The notes below the pieces were generated by a model, which was given only the letters and a program-made list of their open reading frames with translations, made no database searches and was not told where the DNA came from. Below are positions 5,866 to 39,451 of a stretch of DNA of 43,197 nt, in pieces. The DNA comes from Acidobacteriota bacterium (GTDB lineage: Bacteria; Acidobacteriota; Terriglobia; Acidiferrales; UBA7541), in NCBI GenBank assembly GCA_003131985.1, contig PKWH01000231.1:1-43197 (forward strand), in the 5' to 3' direction. The first letter of the stretch is position 1; each line of letters opens with the position of its first letter. The translations under genes and the position numbers were made by a program.

Positions 5866-7314
5866 ATGCGCAAAACGCTTCACATATTCGGAGCTGCAAT
5901 TTGTGTTGTGGCGCTAGGTGCGTCATCGGCCCGGGCTCAGCAGCAGACCCAGGATCAGCCGATCCCCGCCTATCATTCACCGCTTGCTTCGCAGGCCGAC
6001 AACGGTGATCCAAATGCTCCTCCGCCTCAGCTTTTGCCCGACAACCACGCCTTAACCGGGCCCCAGGACCCATCTCTGGGAGTGCCCTCGAGCAACCACA
6101 GCTATTGGACTCCGCACGTTGACCTGTCGGTCACACTTGATTCGGAGCCTCCCGTTACGGGCGGCGATGGAGGATGGACCACTTGGACTAGCCTCACAGG
6201 AGGCGTTGACCTGCGCTGGATGTCGGGACGGTCTGACATGACGTTGAATTATGTAGGCGGTGGTGTTTTTTCGAACGACGGAAGTGCCAGCAATGGAGTT
6301 GTGCAGGACTTAAATTTCGTGGACAGATTCACCTTTCGGCGTTGGGCGCTCACTGTTATTGAACAAGCGTCTTACACGCCTGAAACTGCTTTCGGGTCCG
6401 GTGGATTCCCGGGGATTTCCGTGCCCGGTGGAGCGCCGGGGCTGGGAGGACTTATTCCCGGCCAGACCATTATCACCAACGAAGGACAGCGCTTCTTTAA
6501 TACTTCTCTCGGTGAGGTTGACGTATTTCTTACACCGCGCTCGTCTCTGACGTTTTCGGGAGGTTATTCTCTCTTGCATACTTTCGACGAGAATCTCCTG
6601 GATTACGGAGATGAAATCGCTGAGGCGGGATACAACTACCAGGTCACTCGGAAAGACTCCGTCGGGGTTTCCTATGTGTTTAGCGGATTCCGTTATAACA
6701 ACTTCGACGAGTCAATCAATACGAACACCTTACTGCTATCTTACGGTCGAAGTATTACGGGCCGCTTGGCATTCCGTATTGGAGCCGGGCCGGAATTTGC
6801 CTCGATCAATACCCCCATCATTCCAGGAACTGGCGTCGGCACCATCGGGCCGCCTTCGGGGGGCTCCGTAAACAACCTATATTGGTTCCTCTCGACGTCG
6901 GTGCAATATCAAATGGAACGGACTGCATTATCGGCAGCTTATAGCCATGGCGTCGCCGGCGGATCTGGTGTGCTGGGCGGCTCACTGGCTGACACGGTGA
7001 CGGGTTCCGCGTCGCGGCAATTATCGCGAGTTTCTAGCGGCAACTGGAACGTCGGATACTCCAGAAACTCAGGATTGACTGCTACCGGGTTGCCGCAGAT
7101 CCCGAATTCAAATCAAACCTACGACTATTGGTTTACCGGCGTGAATTATACGCGTTCGTGGGGACGATCCTTAAACATGAACGTGGGATACCAATTGCAG
7201 TACCAAAATTCGAATTCTTCTTTCTGTACCGGAGCCGGATGTGGAGGAAGCTTTACTCGTAATCTGATTACATTTGGTGTGGGTTGGCGTAAACAGCCAA
7301 TCCCGATTGAATAA
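5866..7314 (+). CDS. Putative outer-membrane beta-barrel protein of the EPS export module (EpsL-like by position)
   Basis: Signal peptide (ICVVALGASSARAQQ). The sequence is Gly/Ser/Tyr/Asn-rich with alternating amphipathic strands, for example VGVSYVFSGFRYNN and NVGYQLQYQNSN. It sits between the Wza-like and Wzz-like genes. No specific family motif was recognised. Confidence 0.5.
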   Translation: MRKTLHIFGAAICVVALGASSARAQQQTQDQPIPAYHSPLASQADNGDPNAPPPQLLPDNHALTGPQDPSLGVPSSNHSYWTPHVDLSVTLDSEPPVTGGDGGWTTWTSLTGGVDLRWMSGRSDMTLNYVGGGVFSNDGSASNGVVQDLNFVDRFTFRRWALTVIEQASYTPETAFGSGGFPGISVPGGAPGLGGLIPGQTIITNEGQRFFNTSLGEVDVFLTPRSSLTFSGGYSLLHTFDENLLDYGDEIAEAGYNYQVTRKDSVGVSYVFSGFRYNNFDESINTNTLLLSYGRSITGRLAFRIGAGPEFASINTPIIPGTGVGTIGPPSGGSVNNLYWFLSTSVQYQMERTALSAAYSHGVAGGSGVLGGSLADTVTGSASRQLSRVSSGNWNVGYSRNSGLTATGLPQIPNSNQTYDYWFTGVNYTRSWGRSLNMNVGYQLQYQNSNSSFCTGAGCGGSFTRNLITFGVGWRKQPIPIE

Positions 7315-17102: not shown

Positions 17103-17339
17103 AAGGGTTTAACCTTTGTTCGGACCTGTGAGGCGCGTGGAGGAGCCTCCGACCTGTCCTCAAACTGTCCCCGCGGGCAGTAGTCGCCCTAAGCGGTTGT
17201 GGATAACATCATCCCAGTTGCATTTCACAGAGCTGAAAGTGAAAGAACTTTTGGCATGGAATGTCTCGGCTGGATGATGAGGGAGACGATGCGTAAAACA
17301 GTTCTTTTTAGGGGAATTCAGGTCCTTCGTGGTGTCCGA

Positions 17340-19139
17340 ATGAAAAAAACATATCTTTTTATGCTGGTCCTGTTGTTCGCTCCGCTCGCGGCTCGCGCCG
17401 CTGGAGGTGGAGCATGCCCTTCCGACGCACAGTACGTTAATCCGACCAATCCGACTGGACCACTTGTAACGCTTTCCAGTATCGGCATCACGAGTTGCTT
17501 CTACTTTGCTGACAGTGGCCTCGACACCAATGCCGGCACCACGGAAGCTGCCCCATTTTTGCATGCTCCCTTCATGCCGAACTGCGCATCATCGTGCGCT
17601 GCAGCTCAGGCTGCTTTTGGCCCGGGAGAGGGAATCATTGCGCGTGGAGGTGATACCTGGCACTACTTTTCGGGCACTCCTCTAATCGGCTTGCCGAGCG
17701 GCTGGCCTACAGGCAAAAATGGCTACGCATGGCATATGACTGTGAGCGGGACAAGCGCGAATCCAGTCTACATCGGCGTGGACAAAAATTGGTTCTCGGG
17801 CAGCGCATGGACGCGCCCGGTAATCACTACGGACAACCCTATTTTCACGCCATCTGCTCCAGCGTTTTCAAACCCTGCCTCGACATCTGTTTCACGTTGC
17901 GCCTTTCCGCAAGGGAATTTAGATGACTTCGCGGTTACCGGCCCCACGTTCTGGATATTCGATAATTTCGAATTCACGGGCATGTGCTGGAACGATAGAA
18001 CCGATGGCGGCACCGGCTCGAACGAGCACAATATGATTAAGCAGTTTCAGGGCGGCGGCACGGGAAGTTCTCCCCGCTATATTTTCAATACCTACACACA
18101 CGGCTGGAGCCACACGAGTTTCGCAGATTGCGCCAGCTCGGGAGCCTGCAACGGTCCATCCGCATTTCTGGGGAGCACTCAGGCGATCGACTCTGGACTT
18201 GTACTCGCATTCAACGTAGTGGATGGCTCGGATTCCGACGATTTCTCATTCAGCTTCGGATTCGGTGATGGTTACGACGTGGAAGAAAACGTCTTTAGGC
18301 ACTTAGGTGGGACGCAGATATTTGATAATTGCCATTCGGTCCATGACAACCTGTTCGAGTACATCAATAATGGGAACGATAATATGACTCACGGGGATAT
18401 GTTTTTCTGCGAGAGCGATGTCCAGCCGACGCAGAACAATTTCTTCTATAATAATTTAGTTCGGTATATAGCTACGGAATACAATCAAGACGCGCTCTCG
18501 GCGGTTTGGTGGCTCACTCCGTCACCCGGAAAAGCCGACTATTTTTACAATAACGTGGGCCATGACGTGAACTGTGATGGCGACTGCAACAATATGGGGC
18601 AATCGGGGCAATCTAATAGCAGTTCGCAAATTCTGATCTACAATAACACCTGGCAGTCGGTGCCCGTCAATGGACAGAATTTTAAGATTTTCGGCAACAC
18701 TTCATTCCCGGGAGCCATCACCAGTCAAAACAATCACTGGATTACGAATGGAGGAACCGGCTGCGGAAATATATTCACCGGAACCGCAAACGTCAACGGC
18801 GGAAACACCGCGTGCTCGGGCGACGTATTCCAGACGATTGCAGCAGCGAATGCGCAGGGATACACGTCCGCCAACGACTATGCCCCGACGGCAGCATCTA
18901 CAGCCACGGCAGGGAAAGTGGAGAACGAAACCGGCATCGCCGGCACATTCGGTCTAGCGTTCCTACAGAGCACCTCGAATGGGTGTGCTTACAACCCCGC
19001 AGGCCATACGGTGACTTGCCCGGCGATAACCGTATCCAATCGGCCATCCATCGGAAACTGGGATGCCGGAGCATACGTATCCGGCAGCTCCGACCAGCCC
19101 CCAGCACCGGCGAATCTGGCAGCAACCGTCAACAACTAG
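17340..19139 (+). CDS. Secreted Cys-rich protein with parallel beta-helix-like repeats (possible polysaccharide lyase or hydrolase)
   Basis: The internal ATG at 17340 gives a clean signal peptide, MKKTYLFMLVLLFAPLAARAAGG. Recurrent N-N/aromatic rungs occur (NNFFYNNLVRY, DYFYNNVGHD, ILIYNNTWQS, SQNNHWITNG). The track ORF start at 17199 is probably an upstream extension. Confidence 0.45.
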   Translation: MKKTYLFMLVLLFAPLAARAAGGGACPSDAQYVNPTNPTGPLVTLSSIGITSCFYFADSGLDTNAGTTEAAPFLHAPFMPNCASSCAAAQAAFGPGEGIIARGGDTWHYFSGTPLIGLPSGWPTGKNGYAWHMTVSGTSANPVYIGVDKNWFSGSAWTRPVITTDNPIFTPSAPAFSNPASTSVSRCAFPQGNLDDFAVTGPTFWIFDNFEFTGMCWNDRTDGGTGSNEHNMIKQFQGGGTGSSPRYIFNTYTHGWSHTSFADCASSGACNGPSAFLGSTQAIDSGLVLAFNVVDGSDSDDFSFSFGFGDGYDVEENVFRHLGGTQIFDNCHSVHDNLFEYINNGNDNMTHGDMFFCESDVQPTQNNFFYNNLVRYIATEYNQDALSAVWWLTPSPGKADYFYNNVGHDVNCDGDCNNMGQSGQSNSSSQILIYNNTWQSVPVNGQNFKIFGNTSFPGAITSQNNHWITNGGTGCGNIFTGTANVNGGNTACSGDVFQTIAAANAQGYTSANDYAPTAASTATAGKVENETGIAGTFGLAFLQSTSNGCAYNPAGHTVTCPAITVSNRPSIGNWDAGAYVSGSSDQPPAPANLAATVNN

Positions 19140-29407: not shown

Positions 29408-32329
29408 ATGCCTTTTGACATGCAGACAAACCTAAAAAATGCGGGACGCCAGATCGAGGCCCAACATGGAGCTCCAGGGCTTGTCTTCTGGATTACCGGC
29501 TTATCCGGCGCGGGCAAGACAAGCGTGGGGCGTGAATTGTGGAACCGGCTGCGCGCCGCCGGGCGTCCGGTCACCTTCCTCGACGGCGACGCGCTCCGTG
29601 CTGTGATCGCCGAAGATCTTGGCCACAGCACGGCCGACCGGCGGCGATCGGCGATGCGCAACGCGCGGTTGTGTCGGTTGCTGGCGGCGCAAGGCGCCGA
29701 TGTCGTCTGCGCGACCATCTCACTGTTTCACGAGGTGCAGCGTTGGAACCGCGAGAACATTCCCGGATATCGCGAAATCTACCTACGGGTCCCGATAGAT
29801 GAGCTAAAGCGTCGGGATAGCAAGGGCATCTATGCCGGGGCTGAACGCGGCGACGCGCGCGACGTCGTTGGCCTTGACGTGCCGGCGGAGGCTCCCGAGG
29901 CGCCGGACCTGGTCCTGGACAATCATGGCGGGCTCGATGTTGCCACCGCGGTCGAGCGCATCTTGTCGGTTTGCGACAGGCGGGATGGCACGGCACGGAC
30001 GGCGCACCTCGTTACCTTCAAGACGAAGGCGGAATCTCTGGAAGCGCTGGCGCCGCTGCTGCGCAATGGGCGCGTCCTGCCGCAGGTCCGATTTTCAGTT
30101 GGCGATTGGCGCTCGGACGCCGCTGGCGTGCTCGCTGCCGTCGCCGCCGTGCCCTGGGGTTCAAAACGGGTCATCGTGCGTAGCAGTGCACGGAGCGAAG
30201 ACGGCGCAGAGAGCTCCCAGGCCGGGAGATACGATTCCGTACTCGGTGTCGTCGGCAGCGCAGCACTGGCACAGGCAATCGATCAGGTGATTGACTCCTT
30301 TGCCGATGAGAGTAGCGACGACCAGATCTTCGTGCAACCCATGCTTGACCGCGTATCGATGGCCGGCGTGGCTTTCTCGCGCAGTCCCGGCGGCGGCCCT
30401 TATTTTGTTATCAATTACGACGACCGTTCCGGCCTGACCGATCGCGTGACCGCCGGTGTCGGAGACAATCTCGAGACTTTTCTTTGCCTCAAATCGCGGC
30501 CTGAGGCTTGTCCCCCGTTGCTGGCGCCGGTTATCGCTCTCATGAGCGAGCTCGAAACTCTCTTGGGGTGTGATGCAATCGACGTGGAATTCGCCGTTGG
30601 TGACGACGAGCAGCTCTACCTTCTGCAAGTTCGCCCACTCGCCGTCGACCGGTGGGAGCGGGCAGCAGACGCAAAGGTCGACGCCGCGCTTGCTGATGTC
30701 GCGCGCAAGGTCGAGCTGCTCAGCCGCCCGCATCCATACTTGCACGGTAGCAAAGCAGTATTCGGAGTCATGCCGGACTGGAACCCGGCGGAAATCATCG
30801 GGGTGCGGCCCTGGCCACTCTCGTTGTCGCTCTACCGCGAACTTATCACCGACGCGATCTGGGCGTATCAGAGAGACAACTACGGATACAAGAATCTTCG
30901 CAGTTTTCCGCTGCTGGTCAGCTTTCACGGACTGCCCTACATCGACGTGCGTGTCAGCTTCAACTCCTTCATACCAAGCGACGTACCCGACGATCTAGCC
31001 GGGCGTCTCGTAAATTACTACATCGCTCGCCTCCTATCCGAACCGCATCTCCATGACAAAGTCGAATTCGAGATCATCTTCTCCTGCTACACGTTGGATT
31101 TGCCGAAACGAATGCGCAGGCTGGCCGAGCACGGATTTTCCGCAGAAGACCTTGCCGAAGTTTCGGGCGCCCTACGGCGCCTCACCAATCGCATCATCCA
31201 TGGCGACACCGCGCTGTGGCGGGGCGACCGCGCTAAGATTGACCTGCTGGCACGGCGGTTACCGACGATCTGCAACGCAAAAATCGACAAGATCAGCCGC
31301 ATTTACTGGCTGATCGAAGACTGCAAGCGATACGGCACGCTGCCGTTCGCCGGTCTGGCGCGAGCGGGCTTCATAGCGGTTCAGCTGCTCCAGTCTTTCG
31401 TTGAAGTGGGCGTTCTCACTGCCGAAGAGGCTGCGACATTCATGGCGAGTGTCGATACCGTCGGGTCTCGCATCGGCCAAGATTTCGCGCAACTTCCGAA
31501 GGCAGATTTCCTCGCACGCTACGGCCACCTCCGGCCGGGCACTTACGACATCCTTTCGCCGCGCTACGACGAGGCGCCCGATCTCTATTTCGACTGGTCG
31601 AGTGCCCGAACGACGGCGTCCGCGTCCCCGCGCTTTGCGCTGTCGATCGAGCAGTTGCGACGCATCGAACAGCTGCTCAAGGAACATGAGCTCGACATCG
31701 ACGTCTTGAGCTTGATCGAGTTCATCAGGGCTGGCATTGAAGGCCGCGAATACGCAAAGTTCGTGTTCACGCGAAGCTTGAGCGACGCTCTGTCGCTGAT
31801 CAGGGAGCTGGGCGAGGATCATGGTGTTTCGGCGGAGGATTGTGCGTTTCTAAATTACGACGCCATCCGCACGCTCTATAGCGAGAGCGCTCCGGTGCGC
31901 GAGGTGTTGCTGGAGAGCATCGCGCATGGTAGAGAGCGTCACGCGCTCACCCGCAACCTCGTTCTTCCACCGAACATCACATCGCCCGACGAAGTGTTCG
32001 CATTTTATCTCCCCCCAAGCCAGCCTAATTTCATCACGCGAAAAAGCGTCACCGCACCGGTCGCGTCCATCGGCGACCCACCGGAGAGCTTCGCTGGACG
32101 GATTCTTTTCGTGCCAAGCGCGGACCCCGGCTTCGATTGGATCTTCACTCGTGGTATCAGCGGATTCGTCACCCAGTTCGGCGGTGCCAATTCGCACATG
32201 GCGATCCGTGCCGGCGAGCTCGGCATACCCGCCGTAATCGGCGCCGGCGAAGCGCTGTTCCGGCGATGGCAGTCGGCGCGCAAGCTATGCCTCGATTGCA
32301 CGAACCAGAAGGTCTTGGTCATCGCATGA
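29408..32329 (+). CDS. Two-kinase fusion: N-terminal APS-kinase-fold domain (CysC/Cj1415-like) plus a PEP-utilising/PPDK-type phosphohistidine kinase (Cj1418 L-glutamine-kinase-like)
   Basis: Residues ~25-190 read VFWITGLSGAGKTSVG...FLDGDALR...ADRRRSAMRNARL...ISLFHEVQRWNR...EIYLRVPIDELKRRDSKGIY, an adenylylsulfate-kinase pattern. Residues ~200-973 contain a PPDK_N-like nucleotide-binding region (GVAFSRSPGGGPYFVINYDD). The C-terminal swivel domain reads ILFVPSADPGFDWIFTRGISGFVTQFGGANSHMAIRAGELGIPAVIG, with the candidate phospho-His at codon 930 (nt 32195..32197). RBS aggga. Confidence 0.75.
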   Translation: MPFDMQTNLKNAGRQIEAQHGAPGLVFWITGLSGAGKTSVGRELWNRLRAAGRPVTFLDGDALRAVIAEDLGHSTADRRRSAMRNARLCRLLAAQGADVVCATISLFHEVQRWNRENIPGYREIYLRVPIDELKRRDSKGIYAGAERGDARDVVGLDVPAEAPEAPDLVLDNHGGLDVATAVERILSVCDRRDGTARTAHLVTFKTKAESLEALAPLLRNGRVLPQVRFSVGDWRSDAAGVLAAVAAVPWGSKRVIVRSSARSEDGAESSQAGRYDSVLGVVGSAALAQAIDQVIDSFADESSDDQIFVQPMLDRVSMAGVAFSRSPGGGPYFVINYDDRSGLTDRVTAGVGDNLETFLCLKSRPEACPPLLAPVIALMSELETLLGCDAIDVEFAVGDDEQLYLLQVRPLAVDRWERAADAKVDAALADVARKVELLSRPHPYLHGSKAVFGVMPDWNPAEIIGVRPWPLSLSLYRELITDAIWAYQRDNYGYKNLRSFPLLVSFHGLPYIDVRVSFNSFIPSDVPDDLAGRLVNYYIARLLSEPHLHDKVEFEIIFSCYTLDLPKRMRRLAEHGFSAEDLAEVSGALRRLTNRIIHGDTALWRGDRAKIDLLARRLPTICNAKIDKISRIYWLIEDCKRYGTLPFAGLARAGFIAVQLLQSFVEVGVLTAEEAATFMASVDTVGSRIGQDFAQLPKADFLARYGHLRPGTYDILSPRYDEAPDLYFDWSSARTTASASPRFALSIEQLRRIEQLLKEHELDIDVLSLIEFIRAGIEGREYAKFVFTRSLSDALSLIRELGEDHGVSAEDCAFLNYDAIRTLYSESAPVREVLLESIAHGRERHALTRNLVLPPNITSPDEVFAFYLPPSQPNFITRKSVTAPVASIGDPPESFAGRILFVPSADPGFDWIFTRGISGFVTQFGGANSHMAIRAGELGIPAVIGAGEALFRRWQSARKLCLDCTNQKVLVIA

Positions 32330-32351
32330 AAGCGGTCGCCATCACTCACAG
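32286..32351 (+). repeat. Gene-junction repeat, copy 1 (functional 3' end of the kinase gene plus a truncated 5' stub of the amidohydrolase gene)
   Basis: It aligns with 33207..33272 at about 47/66 nt by hand. It encodes ..CLDCTNQKVLVIA* and then ATGA-overlapped MKAVAITHS.., which runs into a stop after 26 codons. Confidence 0.6.
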
Positions 32352-32395
32352 CAGGCAAACACAATCATCGAATATCAGACTGACGGAGGAAAACG

Positions 32396-33169
32396 ATGGT
32401 CAATAGCACATCCCAGCCCAAAGTAACTTGGGATTACACCGAGCACGCTTCTCATTACGATAAGAGAGCAGACTACTCCCACGATGCGATCAATAATTTG
32501 CTGAAGGCAATTGGCTGCACCCCTTCCAAGCCCGTAGCCGAGATTGGCGCAGGCACGGGTAAGCTCACGAAGGAGCTGCTCAGTCATGGATTAACGGTCA
32601 GCTCCGTCGAGCCGAACGACGCGATGCGGACAATCGGAATTCAAAATACCAAGGGCAAATCAGCTACCTGGTCTGTTGGCACAGGTGAGGCGACAGGATT
32701 GCCCACAAGCGGTGCTTACGCCGTTTTTTTCGGCAGCTCATTTAATGTAGTTGATCAGAGCCTCACTCTATCAGAGGTTTCCAGAGTGCTTGTACCCAAG
32801 GGCTGGTTTGCATGTATGTGGAATCATCGGGATTTAGATGATCCGATTCAACAGCGGATAGAGTCCATCATCAAATCCTCGATTCCAGCTTACTCGTATG
32901 GATCTAGAAGGGAAGATCCGACAAGCGTTATCAATGCAAGTGGGCACTTCTCTGCCACGAAATCGATAGATGGAAGTTTTGTATGGAAAATGTCAAAGTC
33001 AGACATTATTGTTGCTTGGAAATCACACGCGACTCTCAAACGCCAGGCAGGCAGTGACTCGGTTTTCAATCACATCATCGAGGAAATCGCGAGCTATTTG
33101 GACAAACTGCCTGAAATAATCGATGTGCCCTACACAACTCGGATATATTTTGCGCAAAAGATCAAGTAG
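32396..33169 (+). CDS. Class I SAM-dependent methyltransferase (candidate O-methyltransferase of the phosphoramidate block)
   Basis: Motif I VAEIGAGTGKLTKELL, with LTVSSVEPNDAMR and AVFFGSSFN. Strong RBS ggagg. By spot counts its GC is clearly lower than that of the genes on either side. Confidence 0.8.
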   Translation: MVNSTSQPKVTWDYTEHASHYDKRADYSHDAINNLLKAIGCTPSKPVAEIGAGTGKLTKELLSHGLTVSSVEPNDAMRTIGIQNTKGKSATWSVGTGEATGLPTSGAYAVFFGSSFNVVDQSLTLSEVSRVLVPKGWFACMWNHRDLDDPIQQRIESIIKSSIPAYSYGSRREDPTSVINASGHFSATKSIDGSFVWKMSKSDIIVAWKSHATLKRQAGSDSVFNHIIEEIASYLDKLPEIIDVPYTTRIYFAQKIK

Positions 33170-33206
33170 GGAGGGGTTTTACCGCTTGGCGGACTGCGAA
33201 TACAGT

Positions 33207-33272
33207 TGTGCCTGGACTGTACAAGCCGGAAGGTTCTAGACATCGCATGAAGAAAGTCGCAATTACCCAGAG
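33207..33272 (+). repeat. Gene-junction repeat, copy 2 (orphan 3' end of a kinase gene plus the functional 5' end of the amidohydrolase gene)
   Basis: The frame opened after the methyltransferase TAG reads ..LCLDCTSRKVLDIA*, against ..LCLDCTNQKVLVIA* at the real kinase C-terminus. It is followed by ATGA-overlapped MKKVAITQR.., the real start of the next gene. Confidence 0.6.
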
Positions 33273-33849
33273 GGTATCAGTCGTCCCGGGATATGGTGAG
33301 CGTCGTGATTGTCTCGATCAGGCGTGGCCACGGTTCCTGGCAGCGTGCGGACTGATGCCGGTGGCGCTTCCCAACGTGATTGAGGTAGCCGTGGCGCTTT
33401 GCTCAGGCGCGGACGTTACCGGATTGGTGTTGACCGGCGGCAACGACCTCGCTGCTCTCGGTGGCGATGCCCCAGAACGGGATGCCACCGAGAATGCGGT
33501 TCTTGACGTCGCAGAATCGCGCGGGCTGCCTGTGCTCGGCGTCTGTCGCGGGATGCAGGTGGTGCAGCAGCGTTGCGCAATCCCGCTGTGTCGCGTCGAA
33601 GGCCACGTGACACCACACCAGGTAATTCGGATCGACGGCGAGCCCACAGAGGTCAACAGCTATCATCGTTTCGCCGCCTTAGAATCACGACCACCCCTTG
33701 ACGTTTGGGCGGTCGCTGACGACGGCGTCGTCAAGGCTATCCGGCATGCGGCCCACTCGACCACCGGTATCATGTGGCATCCAGAGAGAATGGATCCTTT
33801 CACGTCTGCCGACGTCGCTCTGTTCCGCCGCGTCTTCAAGGTGGCGTGA
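33247..33849 (+). CDS. Class I glutamine-amidotransferase-fold / peptidase C26 hydrolase (Cj1417-like gamma-glutamyl hydrolase candidate)
   Basis: GLVLTGGNDL, nucleophile elbow LPVLGVCRGMQVV, and the His-Glu pair in GIMWHPE. I prefer ATG 33247 (MKKVAITQ) to the track GTG 33208, which lies in the orphan kinase remnant. Confidence 0.8.
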   Translation: MKKVAITQRVSVVPGYGERRDCLDQAWPRFLAACGLMPVALPNVIEVAVALCSGADVTGLVLTGGNDLAALGGDAPERDATENAVLDVAESRGLPVLGVCRGMQVVQQRCAIPLCRVEGHVTPHQVIRIDGEPTEVNSYHRFAALESRPPLDVWAVADDGVVKAIRHAAHSTTGIMWHPERMDPFTSADVALFRRVFKVA

Positions 33850-34628
33850 TGCGCGCCTTGATCCTTGCCGCTGGTCGCGGTAGTCGCATGGGGCAGCTGG
33901 GCGATGGCCGCCCGAAATGCTTGGTGGACCTGAATGGCCATCCGCTGATTGAGCGCCAGATCGCGGCACTCCGGCGCGGTGGGATGGACGAGATTGGAGT
34001 GGTCCGCGGCTATCGCGCCGACATGATCGATTTCCCCGGCATCACCTATTTCGCCAACGAACGATGGGCTGAAACCAACATGGTGATGTCGCTCGTCGCG
34101 GCCGCTTCTTGGCTACGCTCGGGGCCAGTCATCGTCAGCTATGCCGACATCTTCTACCTCAGCGAATTGGTGCGCGGTCTGTCCGGCGCCCCAGGCCAAC
34201 TGGTCATCAGTTACGACCGGGCCTGGCGCCGCTTGTGGACCCGGCGTTTCACTGATCCTTTGGCCGACGCCGAAACGTTCCAGATTGATGCCGCGGGGCA
34301 ATTGCTGGAGATCGGCGGCAAGACGGCGCGGATCGAAGATATCGAGGGGCAATATATGGGTCTCTTGAAATTCACGCCAGCTGCTTGGGGTGCCGTGGAG
34401 ACGCTACTCAGTACACTCGAGCCACCGGTCCGCGATCGCCTCGACGCGACCGGATTGCTGCGCCGACTGCTAGCGGGTAAGAAGCTCCCTATTGCCACTT
34501 TTGGCACCGATGGCCAATGGGGCGAAATCGACAATCCGGAGGATGTGACGCTGTACCAAAACATGGTAAGGGAAGGGGAACTCCGGCTCGAAGATGTGAT
34601 ACCCAGCGGAGAGCGGAGGGTGGGATGA
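33849..34628 (+). CDS. Nucleotidyltransferase (NTP_transferase fold, Cj1416-like cytidylyltransferase candidate)
   Basis: MRALILAAGRGSRMGQLGDGRPKCLVDLNGHPLIERQI is the signature N-terminal G-rich loop. The ATG overlaps the upstream TGA by 1 nt. The track ORF start (33774) lies inside the previous gene. Confidence 0.8.
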   Translation: MRALILAAGRGSRMGQLGDGRPKCLVDLNGHPLIERQIAALRRGGMDEIGVVRGYRADMIDFPGITYFANERWAETNMVMSLVAAASWLRSGPVIVSYADIFYLSELVRGLSGAPGQLVISYDRAWRRLWTRRFTDPLADAETFQIDAAGQLLEIGGKTARIEDIEGQYMGLLKFTPAAWGAVETLLSTLEPPVRDRLDATGLLRRLLAGKKLPIATFGTDGQWGEIDNPEDVTLYQNMVREGELRLEDVIPSGERRVG

Positions 34629-34661: not shown

Positions 34662-35522
34662 CTACAAACTGTAGCCCATTTGCTCGATCCGTCTTTTTGT
34701 CTCCGCATCCAACTCATTGATAAAGTTTCTGAATCGAGGAACTCTTTCTTTAACAGCTAAATAGCCATAAGGCTTGGTTCTCGGAGGGACCACCCGTAAA
34801 CGGCTCAAATCAAGATTAACCGACATGACTTCAGCGATCTTGGAAAACTCCTTTAATGGATTGATCGTGAAGTCCTCAAACCGCAACGTGAGCGTGGCGG
34901 TTTGGAGATAAATCTCAGTTTCCTCGACAAATTCCGGGAAAGACAAAAATCGTAAGCCCGGCGACGCCTTCCAAAAAGCATGGTCGCCATCGGCAAAGGC
35001 CTTGAATTCTGAGAAATTCTGCTCCAAACCGGCGCACAACTCGTCTGCGTTCTTGTAAACCTGGGAGATACTAAAAATTTTGCTTCCGTCGCGCCAGTTT
35101 TCTGCGGCTGATATAGTAATCCAATTTGTTAGCAATGAATCGAGAGGATGCCGATAGAGAAAAATCAAATCGGCAAATCCCGATTTGACCGCTTCCAATA
35201 TACGGCTGGTTACCGCCGGCAATGCTTGACCGCCGGAAACATACTTGATCGTGGCATGGCCGCTGTAGATCATGGATGTCGGACGTGCATGGAAGCGGAT
35301 CGTCTGTCTCAAATATCGTGTTCTTTCTCCAATATTCTGCAGCATCAGTTCGGTGACATATTGACGTCCGCTGCCGAAGAGGCCAATAACATAAGCTGTC
35401 CTGTCTTTCCCTGGATGGATTTTCCAATACCATTCCGTTTCCACCCATTTGTCGCGGAGGAACTGCAATTGTTCCCGAGGGGATTTTCGCGCGAATCTGA
35501 TGAGCTTAGGGAGTACCTGCAT
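34662..35522 (-). CDS. Sulfotransferase-fold protein (PAPS-type donor-binding motifs)
   Basis: A 5'-phosphosulfate-binding-loop-like YVIGLFGSGRQYVTELM and a 3'-phosphate-binding-like FLYRHPLDSLLTNW (compare R-D-P-x-D-x-x-x-S). Strong RBS aagaggag. Convergent with the nucleotidyltransferase gene. Confidence 0.65.
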   Translation of the reverse strand: MQVLPKLIRFARKSPREQLQFLRDKWVETEWYWKIHPGKDRTAYVIGLFGSGRQYVTELMLQNIGERTRYLRQTIRFHARPTSMIYSGHATIKYVSGGQALPAVTSRILEAVKSGFADLIFLYRHPLDSLLTNWITISAAENWRDGSKIFSISQVYKNADELCAGLEQNFSEFKAFADGDHAFWKASPGLRFLSFPEFVEETEIYLQTATLTLRFEDFTINPLKEFSKIAEVMSVNLDLSRLRVVPPRTKPYGYLAVKERVPRFRNFINELDAETKRRIEQMGYSL

Positions 35523-35578: not shown

Positions 35579-36463
35579 ATGGTACTTGTTTGGAAAGAAA
35601 TGAATAAAACAAAAAATAAAAGGATTCAAAAAGATCTGGACCGAATTGTAGCAGCGCTAGATGCAGGCGGCAAAATCTATCGGTCGAGATCGATGGGAAA
35701 TGTGCGTGTGCACAAGAAGGGAAGCGGTGACGCTGTCACGGACGTAGAGCTTCAAGTGAATCAACTGTTGTTTGAAATGCTGGTAGAAGCCGGAGATGGC
35801 TGGCTTTCCGAAGAAGACGTCGATAACGAGGATCGATTGCGATGTTCGCGGGTTTGGCTCGTCGATCCACTCGATGGAACAATAGAATATGTCGAGGGAA
35901 TACCAGAATGGTGCATTTCGATCGCCTTAATGGAAGGTGGCGAACTTATTGCCGGGGGAATATTGAATCCCCAGACCGATGAACTCATATACGGATCGCG
36001 CGAAATCGGGGTCGTCTGCCGTAATGGGCAGGCTCATAGTGCTGAAATGAAAATTCCGCCGCGCGAAGCGCTCGTGCTTGCGAGCCGCAGTGAAGTAAAG
36101 CGCGGAGAATGGAAGCGATTCAGCCAAGGTCCGTTTCAGACCCTAGCCGTGGGATCGGTAGCTTACAAACTAGCCTTGGTTGCGGCTGGCAAAGCCGATG
36201 CCACTTGGACGCTGGTGCCAAAGAGCGAGTGGGATGTTGCAGCCGGAGTCGCACTCTTGCAGTTCGCGCAAGGACATTTGCTAACGACGGAAGGCTTCCC
36301 ACCTACTTTTAATCGAAGAAACACTCGTTTCCCAGGTTTAGTTGGATTTTCTGCGGCGGGACTCGATCGACTGCGCCCTTTCCTCAAGTCCGTATTGGAA
36401 GCCGATGAGTTTCGTGATTGCCTTGCGTGGGCCCGCCCGTTGGCAGCCCTGGACCAGAAATAA
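35579..36463 (+). CDS. Inositol-monophosphatase/CysQ-superfamily phosphatase (candidate 3'(2'),5'-bisphosphate nucleotidase)
   Basis: Metal and substrate motifs LSEED, WLVDPLDGTIEYVEG.PEWCISIAL and WDVAAG. The CysQ-versus-SuhB subfamily cannot be decided by eye. An alternative start is at ATG 35600. Confidence 0.75.
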   Translation: MVLVWKEMNKTKNKRIQKDLDRIVAALDAGGKIYRSRSMGNVRVHKKGSGDAVTDVELQVNQLLFEMLVEAGDGWLSEEDVDNEDRLRCSRVWLVDPLDGTIEYVEGIPEWCISIALMEGGELIAGGILNPQTDELIYGSREIGVVCRNGQAHSAEMKIPPREALVLASRSEVKRGEWKRFSQGPFQTLAVGSVAYKLALVAAGKADATWTLVPKSEWDVAAGVALLQFAQGHLLTTEGFPPTFNRRNTRFPGLVGFSAAGLDRLRPFLKSVLEADEFRDCLAWARPLAALDQK

Positions 36464-36560
36464 AACGGAGAAGGATGAAGTCGCGGTAAATAGTTTAAGT
36501 AATAATTCTTCAAGGCCGGATATACCCCGTTTCTTTGGTGCTATGATTGGAAAGCTCTTT

Positions 36561-36581
36561 GCAGGCGTCGGCCTGCTTTTT
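36561..36581 (+). terminator. Rho-independent terminator
   Basis: gcaggc-gtcg-gcctgc forms a perfect 6-bp GC-rich stem with a 4-nt loop, followed by ttttt. It lies about 100 nt after the phosphatase stop and about 30 nt before leader copy B. Confidence 0.6.
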
Positions 36582-36609
36582 GACATACGCGACGCATGAG
36601 AATCTGGTT

Positions 36610-36844
36610 CTATGTCCTTTATTAGGTTTAGTTTGGGTGTGGGAAAACGAGTGGCATTCTGGGATAGCAATATTCATAAAGATATTCGGCCACCGTCCCA
36701 TTGGCTGCCAGCGCCCTCGGCCGTTACAAATTAAGGTATTCATTGTCATATACTTACGAGGATGAGGGCAAAGGTTCGTCATGGCATCCATCGTGCAATC
36801 CGGTAGGTGAGAGGTCAATTGTGACTCTCATGGCGGTAGCACAA
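36610..36844 (+). promoter_or_regulatory. Conserved ~235-nt leader element, copy B, ending in a hairpin plus an ops-like GGCGGTAGC
   Basis: Direct repeat of 10867..11102. Hairpin gagaggtca-attg-tgactctc is at 36809..36829 and GGCGGTAGCA at 36832..36841, 90 nt upstream of the DegT ATG. It starts just after a terminator, so it probably contains a promoter as well. Confidence 0.5.
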
Positions 36845-36930
36845 GATTTCGTTCAGAAGCGGCATTCGGCGACTGCAGCTCTAATCCCTTCAGCGCGCAC
36901 GACTAAACCATCACGGAGCAAAACCAGATT

Positions 36931-38169
36931 ATGTCAAACAACGAAAAAATCCCATTCTTGGACTTGGTGAGCCTGCACGAGGAGCTGGAAGCCGAGCTGG
37001 TTCCTGTTTTTCAAAAGGTGCTGCGCACGGCGTCCTTTGTCGGCGGGCCGATGGTGGAGGATTTCGAGCGCGAATTTGCCGCCTTTTGCGATGCGAAATA
37101 CTGCGTCGGGCTTGCTAGCGGCACAGACGCGGTGCGATTTGCGCTGATGGCCGCGGGAGTACAGCCCGGGGATGTGGTCATCACTGTTGCCCACACATTC
37201 ATCGCCACCACCGAGGGAATCAGCCAGGCGGGCGCGCGTCCGGACTTCGTGGATATCGATGAACGCACATACTGCATGGACCCCGTAAAGCTGAAGGAAT
37301 ATATCGAGCGGGAATGCTATGTGGATCGCGAAACCGGAACGCCATACCACCGAAAGCTTAGAGCGCCAGTGACGGCGATTGTGCCAGTGCACATCTACGG
37401 CCAGATGGCGGACATGGATCCGATCATGGAATTAGCGCGTCGCTACAACTTGATTGTTGTAGAGGACGCCTGCCAAGCCCACGGCGCCGAGTATTTTTCG
37501 AAGAAAGAGAATCGCTGGATGAAAGCCGGGTCCATGGGACATGCCGGAGCGTTTAGCTTCTATCCGGGGAAAAATCTGGGTGCCTGTGGCGAAGCCGGCG
37601 CCGCCACCACCAATAGTGAAGACATTGCGCGAAAAATGCGCATGTTGCGCGATCATGGCCAGTCGAAGAAGTACTATCACGATATCGAGGGATACAACGG
37701 CCGTTTGGATTCGCTTCAGGCCGGAATTCTAAGCGTCAAGCTCCGGCACCTGGCTGATTGGAATCGCAAACGTCAGGAAGTTGCGGGGCGCTATCACGAG
37801 TTGTTTTCCGATGCCAAGGGCGTCACTCTGCCGCACGAGCCTGAATCATCCCGCGCCGTGTACCACTTATATGTAGTTCGGGTCCGAGACCGAGAAGGAC
37901 TGCAGAAACATCTTGGCGAAGCCAAAATCGATACCGGCATTCACTACCCTGTTCCGTTGCACATGCAGAAGGCGTATGCGAATTACGGTTATAAATTCGG
38001 CGACTTTCCGGTTACCGAGAGAATCGCCGCGGAAATTGTCTCTCTTCCGATGTTTCCGCAATTGACTGAAAAGCAACAGCGTGGTGTTGTAGAAAACGTA
38101 AAAGAATTTGCATCAAAGGAAATCGGGAAGCGGGATGCGGTGCGTGAGCCGCAGACCTCTTCCGTCTAA
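36931..38169 (+). CDS. DegT/DnrJ/EryC1/StrS-family PLP-dependent sugar aminotransferase
   Basis: IPFLDL...FE.EFA.F...KYCVGLASGTDAVRFAL, VPVHIYGQMADMD, and the PLP-lysine region AFSFYPGKNLGACGEAG. Confidence 0.9.
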   Translation: MSNNEKIPFLDLVSLHEELEAELVPVFQKVLRTASFVGGPMVEDFEREFAAFCDAKYCVGLASGTDAVRFALMAAGVQPGDVVITVAHTFIATTEGISQAGARPDFVDIDERTYCMDPVKLKEYIERECYVDRETGTPYHRKLRAPVTAIVPVHIYGQMADMDPIMELARRYNLIVVEDACQAHGAEYFSKKENRWMKAGSMGHAGAFSFYPGKNLGACGEAGAATTNSEDIARKMRMLRDHGQSKKYYHDIEGYNGRLDSLQAGILSVKLRHLADWNRKRQEVAGRYHELFSDAKGVTLPHEPESSRAVYHLYVVRVRDREGLQKHLGEAKIDTGIHYPVPLHMQKAYANYGYKFGDFPVTERIAAEIVSLPMFPQLTEKQQRGVVENVKEFASKEIGKRDAVREPQTSSV

Positions 38170-38260: not shown

Positions 38261-39451
38261 ATGGCTAGACCCCTTTTCGCATTATCGGTGGAAGCCGATA
38301 CCCTGACGCAGATTGCTTCTCTGAACCAATCTGTTGTGGCGGGGCTCGTTTCCATGTTCGATCCCGAGCGAAAACTCTTCTGCCACCGGCTGCGGCTGGG
38401 CGAAAGTGGATTAGTTCGAGAGGGAATTTCTCATCGCTACACCATGATCGCGCTGTTGGGTCTCCAACGATTGCGATCCACCGGAGTCTCGATTCCGCTG
38501 GATCTTCCATCGATTTTGCAGGTTCTGATTCAGGACACCCGCTGGCTTGAAAATGTCGGCGACCTCGGTTTGCTTGTGTGGCTTTGTGCCTTGGTGTCTC
38601 CCGAGCGCCTAGCCGAAATTGATTCCCAATTCGATTTGAAACATGCTCTGGCTCACTTCCACGAGACTCGCCGGGGAAGAACGATGGAGCTGTCCTGGTT
38701 TCTCTCGGGCCTCGCCCACCAGAAGCTAGCGTGCCCGGACCTGCTTCCGCACCTGCGCGATACCGCCATGGAGACGTATCAGCTTCTGAGGAAGAATCAG
38801 GGCGAGCACGGAGTGTTCAGCCACCTCGCGGAAAACGGAGGCTTGACCGGGCTGATGCGCGGACGCATGGGAAGTTTTGCGGATCAAGTTTATCCCATCT
38901 ATGCGTTGGCCAAATTTTCTAGAGCGTATCAAGTGCCGAAGGCTGCCGAGCGTGCGCTGGACGCCGCGTTGACGCTGTGCGAATTGCAGGGTCCTCATGG
39001 TCAGTGGTGGTGGCACTACGACGCGGCCACTGGGAAGGTATTGGGTCAGTATCCTGTTTACTCTGTGCACCAATATGGCATTGCGCCCATGGCCCTTCTA
39101 GCGTTGGGAGAAGAGACTCAATCAGATTTTACTCCCTGGATTTATAAGGGACTACGATGGATTCACGGGGACAACGAGCTTGAACAGGATATGCGAGATA
39201 GTTCGGCAAACGTAATTTGGAGATATATTTATCGCAACGATTACAAAAAACATTGGGATGTCGCTCTCGCGGTGCTAATGGCGCGCGGAGATGCCCAACC
39301 TCACAAGGAACTTGCGGTCCTGCACGAGTGCCGTCCATACGAACTCGGCTGGCTGCTCTATGCTTTCGCCGGGCACCGAATGGGACAGCAAGGTCTGCCC
39401 GGCACGGCTCCTATAATAGCGACGCGATTGACCGAACGCATTCAACAATGA
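38261..39451 (+). CDS. Conserved hypothetical protein (helix-rich, possibly alpha/alpha-toroid-like)
   Basis: 396-aa ORF in an operon-like position between the DegT and deacetylase genes. It has periodic aromatic/Leu-rich helical segments (ELSWFLSGLAH, VYPIYALAKFSRAY, GQWWWHYD..YPVYSVHQYGIAPMALLALGE). No catalytic motif was recognised. Confidence 0.4.
   Translation: MARPLFALSVEADTLTQIASLNQSVVAGLVSMFDPERKLFCHRLRLGESGLVREGISHRYTMIALLGLQRLRSTGVSIPLDLPSILQVLIQDTRWLENVGDLGLLVWLCALVSPERLAEIDSQFDLKHALAHFHETRRGRTMELSWFLSGLAHQKLACPDLLPHLRDTAMETYQLLRKNQGEHGVFSHLAENGGLTGLMRGRMGSFADQVYPIYALAKFSRAYQVPKAAERALDAALTLCELQGPHGQWWWHYDAATGKVLGQYPVYSVHQYGIAPMALLALGEETQSDFTPWIYKGLRWIHGDNELEQDMRDSSANVIWRYIYRNDYKKHWDVALAVLMARGDAQPHKELAVLHECRPYELGWLLYAFAGHRMGQQGLPGTAPIIATRLTERIQQ

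Follow-up and report, generated by a model that had tools for sequence, protein, structure and literature searches.

An exopolysaccharide (EPS) locus on a 43,197-nt stretch of DNA from an Acidobacteriota bacterium (contig PKWH01000231.1; hereafter the window, to which all positions refer) contains, on its + strand, a block of four genes at 29408-34628 that together encode five domains, the first gene being a fusion. The block is the core of a cassette related to the genes with which Campylobacter jejuni prepares the O-methyl phosphoramidate (MeOPN) group of its capsule, where Cj1415-Cj1418 jointly form CDP-phosphoramidate 3'-phosphate, the likely donor, from glutamine, ATP and CTP (PMC11800397). 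As judged from its sequence, the cassette would follow the Campylobacter MeOPN route to an activated phosphoramidate donor, with which it would decorate the EPS of the surrounding locus, a reading to which a probability of about 0.7 can be assigned.

Genes and domains of the cassette

The first gene (29408-32329) encodes a 973-aa APS-kinase-like::PPDK-like protein. Its N-terminal domain (residues 1-201; 29408..30010) is an adenosine 5'-phosphosulfate (APS)-kinase-fold P-loop kinase, apparently of the Cj1415 (CDP-amidate 3'-kinase) type, and its C-terminal domain (residues 202-973; 30011..32329) is a PPDK-like phosphohistidine enzyme of the L-glutamine kinase (Cj1418) type. There follow, also on the + strand, genes for a 257-aa class I S-adenosylmethionine (SAM) methyltransferase of the Cj1419 type (32396-33169), a 200-aa class-I amidotransferase-fold hydrolase of the Cj1417 (gamma-glutamyl-CDP-amidate hydrolase) type (33247-33849) and a 259-aa nucleotidyltransferase of the Cj1416 (CTP:phosphoglutamine cytidylyltransferase) type (33849-34628). 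A preliminary description of this DNA had named the same five domain families, all of which are matched by Pfam (APS_kinase, PPDK_N/PEP-utilizers, Methyltransf_11, Peptidase_C26/GATase and NTP_transf_3), but had counted five contiguous + strand frames where there are four genes. It had also described tight packing by ATGA and TGATG overlaps. The TGATG junction between the hydrolase and nucleotidyltransferase genes (1 nt) is real and is the sole true overlap inside the block; the ATGA with which the kinase gene ends, by contrast, is part of a relic copy of the hydrolase start and belongs to no live gene, and the methyltransferase gene is bordered by gaps of 66 and 77 nt.

The starts of the hydrolase (ATG 33247) and nucleotidyltransferase (ATG 33849) genes are backed by public gene calls and family alignments, the listed open reading frames (ORFs) opening at GTG 33208 and at 33774, respectively. 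The 973-aa protein is found in identical form, with gene order unchanged, on 21 public metagenome contigs, so the fusion is neither an assembly artefact nor a product of chance.

Pfam PPDK_N and PEP-utilizers matches span residues 252-966 of the 973-aa protein. The same domains are present in phosphoenolpyruvate (PEP) synthases and rifampin phosphotransferases, and were the large protein an enzyme of that type, the resemblance of the gene set to that for MeOPN would be coincidental. However, the protein scores 936 bits on NF004508 (L-glutamine kinase, Cj1418; PRK05849), well above the cut-off of 501, whereas PEP synthase and rifampin phosphotransferase models reach at most 54 bits on its kinase domain, placing it in the glutamine-kinase group. 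It aligns over its full kinase length with a Campylobacter Cj1418 orthologue (781 aa, locus L089; 1113 bits on NF004508), at 41% identity over 785 aa and 628 bits. The phosphohistidine motif of the PEP-utilizers mobile domain, GGxNSHMAIR, is present, with H930 of the window protein aligned to H739 of the Campylobacter protein, and its histidine is unchanged across 20 diverse relatives. With the five-part synteny conserved as well, the PEP synthase/rifampin-phosphotransferase reading of the large protein is already effectively refuted.

The hydrolase aligns with the Campylobacter Cj1417 orthologue (202 aa, also from L089) at 28% identity over 192 aa (E 6e-28). Among NCBIfam models it scores best on NF045546, with 112 bits where the cut-off is 250; the next family is 79 bits lower at 33 bits, and the Campylobacter protein scores 316 bits on NF045546. 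The intact Cys/His/Glu triad reported earlier is indeed in place (C100, H178 and E180), and the motifs ITQR, ERRDxLDQ, GGND and VNSYH are kept across 73 cassette hydrolases, the Campylobacter one included. No curated model exists for the Cj1416 family; the nucleotidyltransferase (NTP_transf_3, E 4e-19) aligns with the Campylobacter Cj1416 orthologue at 34% identity over 252 aa (E 8e-47), and LicC (PDB 1jyk) with its residues 2-95 only (E 2e-10). The methyltransferase, with motif I VAEIGAGTG at residues 47-55, matches Cj1419 at 42% identity (186 bits) and Cj1420 at 30% (100 bits), generic models giving at most 36 bits.

The N-terminal domain of the fusion has a clear APS-kinase fold, with a Pfam APS_kinase match over residues 24-171 of the 973-aa protein (E 4.5e-33) and 94 bits to PDB 2yvu by sequence search. 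It might accordingly be a true APS kinase making 3'-phosphoadenosine 5'-phosphosulfate (PAPS), in which case its fusion to the PPDK-like enzyme would be functionally meaningless. Yet it falls under every canonical APS-kinase cut-off (TIGR00455, 117.5 against 138.7; NF003013, 103.6 against 163; NF002059, 118.8 against 244) and passes only that of the cassette-linked subfamily NF004041 (PRK05541; 173 bits against 127), a pattern repeated identically in seven stand-alone cassette kinases from Lachnospiraceae, Paenibacillus, Pseudomonas, Chitinibacter and others. The consensus of 40 cassette kinases (LDGDxLRxVFG, VVCATISxF, WNRxNIP) differs in substrate-binding motifs from Escherichia coli CysC, at GDN, LGF, ISP and NFTG, a comparison that is indicative only. 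Related loci were collected by scanning one genome per GTDB species, and counts refer to the best 80, up to 10 kb away from the kinase gene. In 76 of these the domain is linked or fused to the glutamine-kinase gene, and a simple motif scan of the window and the 80 loci found no ATP sulfurylase motif. A true APS kinase is thus very improbable, and the distinction from CysC anticipated in the preliminary description stands.

By profile models and direct alignments, all five domains are, as had been proposed, specifically related to MeOPN enzymes and not to CysC, PpsA/rifampin phosphotransferase, PuuD or LicC. On the basis of this specific homology, four steps of a donor pathway can be predicted with good confidence. 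The C-terminal domain of the 973-aa protein would use ATP and phosphohistidine H930 to phosphorylate L-glutamine on its amide nitrogen; the 259-aa nucleotidyltransferase would join the phosphorylated glutamine with CTP, giving CDP-L-glutamine; the 200-aa Cys/His/Glu hydrolase would take off glutamate, leaving cytidine diphosphoramidate; and the N-terminal APS-kinase-like domain would phosphorylate the 3'-OH, giving 3'-phospho-CDP-amidate. In a fifth step, the Cj1419-type methyltransferase would supply an O-methyl group.

Distribution, mobility and the methyltransferase gene

A HMMER scan of 1.84 billion representative proteins with the kinase domain returned 1632 clusters (50% identity) at E <= 1e-30, and about 145 of the best 150 matches are full-length. 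The domain occurs as a stand-alone protein (~775 aa), as an APS_kinase::kinase fusion (~975 aa) and as an NTP_transf_3::kinase fusion (~1020-1050 aa). At least 580 relatives were confirmed in the genome scan and the cassette was verified in at least 80 species genomes, so it is not a rarity of the window locus. A survey of gene neighbourhoods bears out the five-family block: besides the kinase-like domain (76 of the 80 loci), homologues of the hydrolase were found in 71, of the nucleotidyltransferase in 73 and of the methyltransferase in 67-68, fusions again among them. Nearly all other window genes have homologues in 0-5 loci each, the DegT-type aminotransferase in up to 9. According to the record titles, uncultured carriers include Acidobacteriota, Bryobacterales, Gemmatimonadales, Planctomycetota, Eremiobacterota, Chlamydiales, Sericytochromatia and Lachnospiraceae; among cultured carriers are Pseudomonas taiwanensis, Azospirillum, Chitinibacter, Chitinilyticum, Clostridium guangxiense and Paenibacillus. 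The Campylobacter loci used for comparison (L088 and L089; 28% GC) were found in a metagenome collection by means of the cj1420 primer CS-1246 (PMC3907429).

Nucleotide similarity to the closest relatives is limited to 29.4-35.5 kb, reaching 36.4 kb in one locus (L011), and the GC content of the cassette genes is 0.61 against 0.52 for the window. Mobile-element boundaries at the cassette ends were considered and rejected, as a repeat search found no terminal repeats there. Since the five domains are found together across many phyla but in the company of differing polysaccharide genes, the 29.4-36.5 kb region appears to be a self-contained cassette that is horizontally mobile and has entered a variety of polysaccharide loci.

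Kinases 79-91% identical to that of the window are present in metagenome-assembled genomes titled Isosphaeraceae, Gemmatimonadales, Binataceae, Actinomycetota and Gammaproteobacteria (e.g. L015, L036, L050 and L058), some of them on contigs of 1.5-3.7 Mb, which points either to a recent passage of the cassette from phylum to phylum or to unreliable labelling of the records. In six Bryobacterales/Acidobacteriota loci (L018, L019, L022, L028, L033 and L044) a BrxC-like protein of ~935-970 aa (a P-loop protein of the BREX type) is encoded directly past the cassette, e.g. at L019:13875-16682 on the - strand, where the match to NF033441 (343 bits) is below the cut-off of 400.

A related set, on a Vibrio alfacsensis plasmid (L095, NZ_CP140104.1), consists of a 995-aa nucleotidyltransferase-like::kinase fusion, a hydrolase and a second nucleotidyltransferase, adjoining cysD/cysN, an SLC13 permease and a CDP-glycerol glycerophosphotransferase-family gene; its annotation shows neither a methyltransferase nor an APS-kinase-like gene. 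The fusion was considered as an APS-kinase fusion beside cysDN and rejected as such, its N-terminus being nucleotidyltransferase-like. It may be that the plasmid genes put a CDP-amidate donor to a different use. In the Campylobacter-type locus L089, cj1416 is followed, in place of cj1415, by a cytidylyltransferase::PEP mutase fusion (L089:5729-7075; TIGR02320, 412 bits), so that phosphonate and phosphoramidate genes are adjacent.

The methyltransferase gene varies in type and placement. The 68 of the 80 loci with a cassette methyltransferase comprise 43 with the Cj1420 type only, 23 with the Cj1419 type only and two, both from Lachnospiraceae, that have both types, like Campylobacter. Cj1419 and Cj1420 are without assigned function, the capsule being unaltered in knockouts (PMC11800397). 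Their near-exclusive alternation across loci suggests that the two types perform the same job, a redundancy that would explain the silent single knockouts.

In close relatives the usual gene order is kinase, hydrolase, nucleotidyltransferase, Cj1420-type methyltransferase and a gene here termed orf286 (described below), whereas in the window and in L011, L034 and L050 a low-GC Cj1419-type gene lies between the kinase and hydrolase genes. In the window this gene has a GC content of 0.48, against 0.61 for its neighbours, and is bracketed by a 69-nt imperfect direct repeat of 71% identity, found by repeat search and alignment. The left copy (32283..32351, + strand) comprises the kinase 3' end and a relic hydrolase start, and the right copy (33204..33272, + strand) a relic kinase 3' end and the live hydrolase start, so the repeat duplicates the last kinase codons and the first hydrolase codons ('HRMKxVAIT'). 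In most relatives the sequence matching 32348 is joined straight to that matching 33204. The low GC content and the flanking duplication of the junction suggest that the methyltransferase gene was inserted into a formerly ATGA-overlapped kinase/hydrolase junction, the window thus being a swap variant.

Candidates for group transfer and by-product removal

The preliminary description spoke of a full set of MeOPN enzymes. The set is not full, as no relative of the Cj1421/Cj1422 MeOPN transferases (NF058596, Pfam DUF2972) was found in the window (best tblastn E 0.68) or in 86 related loci (at 1e-4), and NF058596 has no match among the scanned window proteins. By contrast, the Campylobacter-type locus L088 encodes two proteins, of 612 and 625 aa, that exceed the cut-off (600) of NF058596, the O-methyl phosphoramidate transferase model. 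Two genes that the earlier account did not mention adjoin the window cassette: orf286 (34662..35522, - strand), which encodes a 286-aa protein of predicted sulfotransferase fold, and a gene for a CysQ/inositol-monophosphatase-family protein (35579..36463, + strand).

The orf286 product has no Pfam (to E 10) or NCBIfam family, and its more than 1000 homologues, those listed being 64-94% identical, are all named hypothetical. An AlphaFold2 model built with an alignment has a mean confidence (pLDDT) of 84.8, against 34 from the single sequence. The top 33 PDB matches to this model in Foldseek are all PAPS sulfotransferases, with probability mostly 1.0 (0.54-1.00) and E down to 2e-5, at a TM score of about 0.4 only. 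Invariant residues of the family include G50, G52, R53, H89, R124, H125, P126 and D128; by eye only, a 5'-PSB-like GSGR (50-53), a 3'-PB-like RHPLDS (124-129) and a catalytic-histidine-like residue resemble those of sulfotransferases. In 28 of 40 close loci a homologue of orf286 is found at a distance of 0.7-4.4 kb from the kinase gene. In other lineages its position is taken by a different family, one that hits Pfam Sulfotransfer_3; its members are encoded beside the cassette or within it in 25 loci, of which 19 belong to the 40 distant ones. Overall, at least 50 of the 80 loci, from various phyla, have a sulfotransferase-fold neighbour of one or other family, often inside the cassette, and two annotated sulfotransferase-domain genes are next to the cassette on the Azospirillum lipoferum plasmid AZO_p6. 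A strict linkage of orf286 to the cassette was rejected: of four independently sampled homologues with usable flanks, three have no kinase cassette within 7-10 kb, and one has a complete cassette with cysQ.

The CysQ-like protein matches Pfam Inositol_P (E 1e-37), and its best NCBIfam model is TIGR01331 (CysQ), at 99 bits, below the cut-off of 229. Homologues are present in 9-10 of the 80 loci, from several phyla. The gene lies directly between the hydrolase and nucleotidyltransferase genes in L056, L064, L066 and L083; in L078 it is inside the cassette after the hydrolase gene, with one further ORF before that for the nucleotidyltransferase, and in L011 and L091 it adjoins the cassette.

The layout of CDP-phosphoramidate 3'-phosphate is that of PAPS, i.e. 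a 3'-phosphorylated nucleotide with a transferable group on the 5' side. The orf286 and CysQ-like products would fit such a PAPS-like 3'-phospho-CDP-amidate and are thus candidates for the transfer and by-product steps. The divergent sulfotransferase-fold orf286 product would move the phosphoramidyl group from this donor onto a sugar hydroxyl, and the CysQ-like phosphatase would strip the 3'-phosphate of the released cytidine 3',5'-bisphosphate. These assignments of transferase and phosphatase substrate come from context and are tentative. Three folds are repeatedly met side by side at the cassette, those of an APS kinase, of a sulfotransferase and of a CysQ-like phosphatase, and the simplest explanation would be that the logic of sulfation has been reused, with kinase activation, transfer by a sulfotransferase fold and hydrolysis of cytidine 3',5'-bisphosphate.

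Alternatively, the flanking genes could be an ordinary sulfation unit, with the orf286 product as a PAPS-dependent sulfotransferase acting on EPS and the CysQ-like enzyme serving to recycle 3'-phosphoadenosine 5'-phosphate, phosphoramidyl transfer being left to another protein, e.g. one encoded by an ORF that matches no family, such as 17199-19139 or 38261-39451. In favour of this reading, the predicted fold of orf286 matches PAPS sulfotransferases, its family is also found with no cassette nearby, and the V. alfacsensis plasmid has cysDN beside its related cassette. However, the window has neither a sulfurylase nor a canonical APS kinase, the recurrence of sulfotransferase-fold genes at the cassette extends across phyla, and clustering of all neighbouring ORFs gave no other conserved candidate transferase. 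Overall, an ordinary sulfation unit seems unlikely.

Several points weigh against a MeOPN-type pathway that ends in transfer to EPS. The first is the missing Cj1421/Cj1422 homologue itself. Secondly, profiles fail to link orf286, Sulfotransfer_3 and Cj1421/Cj1422: hhalign of orf286 against the Sulfotransfer_3 neighbours gave a probability of 2.9%, which is not significant, and comparisons of the orf286 family with Cj1421 and of Sulfotransfer_3 with Cj1422 likewise gave no significant match. Given that three of the four sampled homologues have no nearby cassette, orf286-family members away from it could be ordinary sulfotransferases. The assignment of the N-terminal domain as a Cj1415-type 3'-kinase is indirect, drawing on the subfamily model, synteny and fusion in place of a direct alignment with Cj1415; neither fetched Campylobacter locus (L088 or L089) includes cj1415. 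The hydrolase stays short of the NF045546 equivalog cut-off, and relatives of the nucleotidyltransferase use other phospho-substrates, CpgD being described as a phosphoglycerate cytidylyltransferase (PMC12275187). PDB sequence searches found no solved relatives of Cj1415-Cj1418, Cj1421 or orf286 beyond generic folds.

It may also be that a CDP-amidate-type nucleotide is made but that the end product is not O-methyl phosphoramidate on EPS, but a phosphoramidate that lacks the methyl group or bears some other substituent, a decoration on another glycoconjugate, or a small molecule. The partners of the cassette vary by lineage (Sulfotransfer_3, a TagF-like protein in Vibrio, DegT-type aminotransferases), and the C. 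jejuni phosphoramidate itself is reported to be able to occur with or without the methyl group (PMC9561416). Yet the EPS locus around the window cassette is of the Wzx/Wzy type and includes rmlABCD and glycosyltransferase genes, and a Cj1419- or Cj1420-type methyltransferase accompanies the cassette in most of the loci; such a different product is considered improbable. From its context, decoration of the window EPS by phosphoramidate is likely. A broader proposal is more speculative, and we hold it to be possible rather than probable: outside Campylobacter, recruited sulfotransferase-fold enzymes (the orf286 family and Sulfotransfer_3) would transfer the phosphoramidyl group from 3'-phospho-CDP-amidate and a dedicated CysQ-like phosphatase would clear the by-product, making sulfation and phosphoramidation mechanistic siblings, with MeOPN-type decorations common on the EPS of soil bacteria and Cj1419 and Cj1420 interchangeable.

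Two further observations concern transferases. In the MeOPN transferases of L088 (L088:2895-6665), a glycine-rich loop (FFSHGAGAF / FFLHTSGEK) lies upstream of DUF2972 and is followed ~80 residues later by LLRDPIDSLKS / QIRDPIELIK, which is like the sulfotransferase 3'-phosphate-binding motif; the Sulfotransfer_3 HMM aligns with Cj1422 at the RDP motif only, with 5.9 bits, which is suggestive and not evidence. On A. lipoferum 4B plasmid AZO_p6, an 846-aa 'adenylyl-sulfate kinase' (L094:4638-7178) has a C-terminal domain 50% identical to the kinase-like domain of the window, and its long N-terminal part has, by eye only, sulfotransferase-like motifs at its start (IHFDLPRAAGDS and FVRNPFDWYISS); a PDB sequence search with the protein gave no match, and it could be a transferase::3'-kinase fusion.

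Relation to known systems and the surrounding locus

The likeness to the C. jejuni MeOPN pathway extends over homologues of Cj1418, Cj1416, Cj1417 and Cj1419 (28-42% identity) and a Cj1415-type domain, with catalytic residues intact and the genes clustered in a surface-polysaccharide locus. By contrast with Campylobacter, the window has its two kinases fused in one 973-aa protein and one methyltransferase instead of two; it lacks Cj1421/Cj1422 (NF058596/DUF2972) and has two additions, a sulfotransferase-fold protein and a CysQ-like phosphatase. Its host is acidobacterial and its polymer that of a Wzx/Wzy, apparently XrtA-type EPS system, as against a KpsMT-type capsule, and the product has been observed in Campylobacter only, the window system being known from its genes. 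With PAPS-dependent sulfation (CysC, sulfotransferase and the CysQ 3'(2'),5'-bisphosphate nucleotidase) the window shares the same three folds side by side and, as predicted, the sequence of a 3'-phosphorylated nucleotide donor, group transfer and hydrolysis of a 3',5'-bisphosphate by-product. It differs in that its kinase is outside the canonical APS-kinase models and is fused to a glutamine kinase, that a sulfurylase is lacking, and that its predicted donor carries phosphoramidate on CDP and not sulfate on AMP.

The MeOPN pathway has been treated as confined to Campylobacter (PMC9561416, PMC6429109, PMC3907429), and a full-text literature search, which did not extend to subscription papers, found no survey of its bacterial distribution. 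The one exception found is a preprint on archaeal Borg elements, in which a MeOPN-like four-gene cluster is predicted from sequence and structure (bioRxiv 10.1101/2024.11.05.622173). That cluster likewise has predicted glutamine kinase, cytidylyltransferase and hydrolase homologues outside Campylobacter, but it belongs to an extrachromosomal element of archaea and was recognised by structure search, and its description mentions neither a 3'-kinase nor a methyltransferase, whereas the window cassette is bacterial, is aligned directly with Campylobacter sequences and has had its distribution surveyed. The biosynthetic enzymes are thus already known; what is new is the fused bifunctional kinase, the single methyltransferase, the cassette form and the different predicted enzymes of transfer and recycling.

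In public annotation the cassette genes appear as "PEP-utilizing enzyme", "adenylyl-sulfate kinase", "gamma-glutamyl-GABA hydrolase family" and "phosphocholine cytidylyltransferase family", generic names that make the pathway invisible to genome surveys; RefSeq annotation of the cultured carriers also fails to recognise it. As the same enzyme set is mobile in Acidobacteriota and many other phyla, polysaccharides containing P-N bonds may be common in soils, with a bearing on EPS chemistry, phage receptors and phosphorus/nitrogen cycling. The comparative data also make two Campylobacter questions testable, i.e. which enzyme methylates and what kind of enzyme transfers the group.

The surrounding locus was previously described as an exosortase-type EPS locus, and a gene set apparently of the XrtA/PEP-CTERM type does surround the cassette, comprising a probable export protein, chain-length determinant, ATPase, tyrosine kinase and amidotransferase of that system, together with Wzx, a Wzy-like protein, glycosyltransferases and rmlABCD. 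The marker TIGR03007 is matched at 280 bits (cut-off 278.85), and TIGR03027, TIGR03015, TIGR03018 and TIGR03108 are best matches, each under its own cut-off; no exosortase gene is among the scanned window ORFs. Three long ORFs of the locus, at 5866-7314 (482 aa), 17199-19139 (646 aa) and 38261-39451 (396 aa), have no Pfam or NCBIfam family. RmlB is 82-83% identical to Candidatus Acidiferrales proteins, which marks the host as probably acidobacterial.

A DegT/PseC-type sugar aminotransferase gene is present in the window at 36931-38169 and near the cassette in L054, L056, L057, L058, L064, L074, L085 and L086, several of these loci being proteobacterial and from Lachnospiraceae; its recurrence may hint at an amino-sugar acceptor. 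Within the 467-nt gap between the CysQ-like and DegT-type aminotransferase genes (36464-36930) there are a terminator-like hairpin (36561-36576) and, in public annotation, a 64-aa gene.

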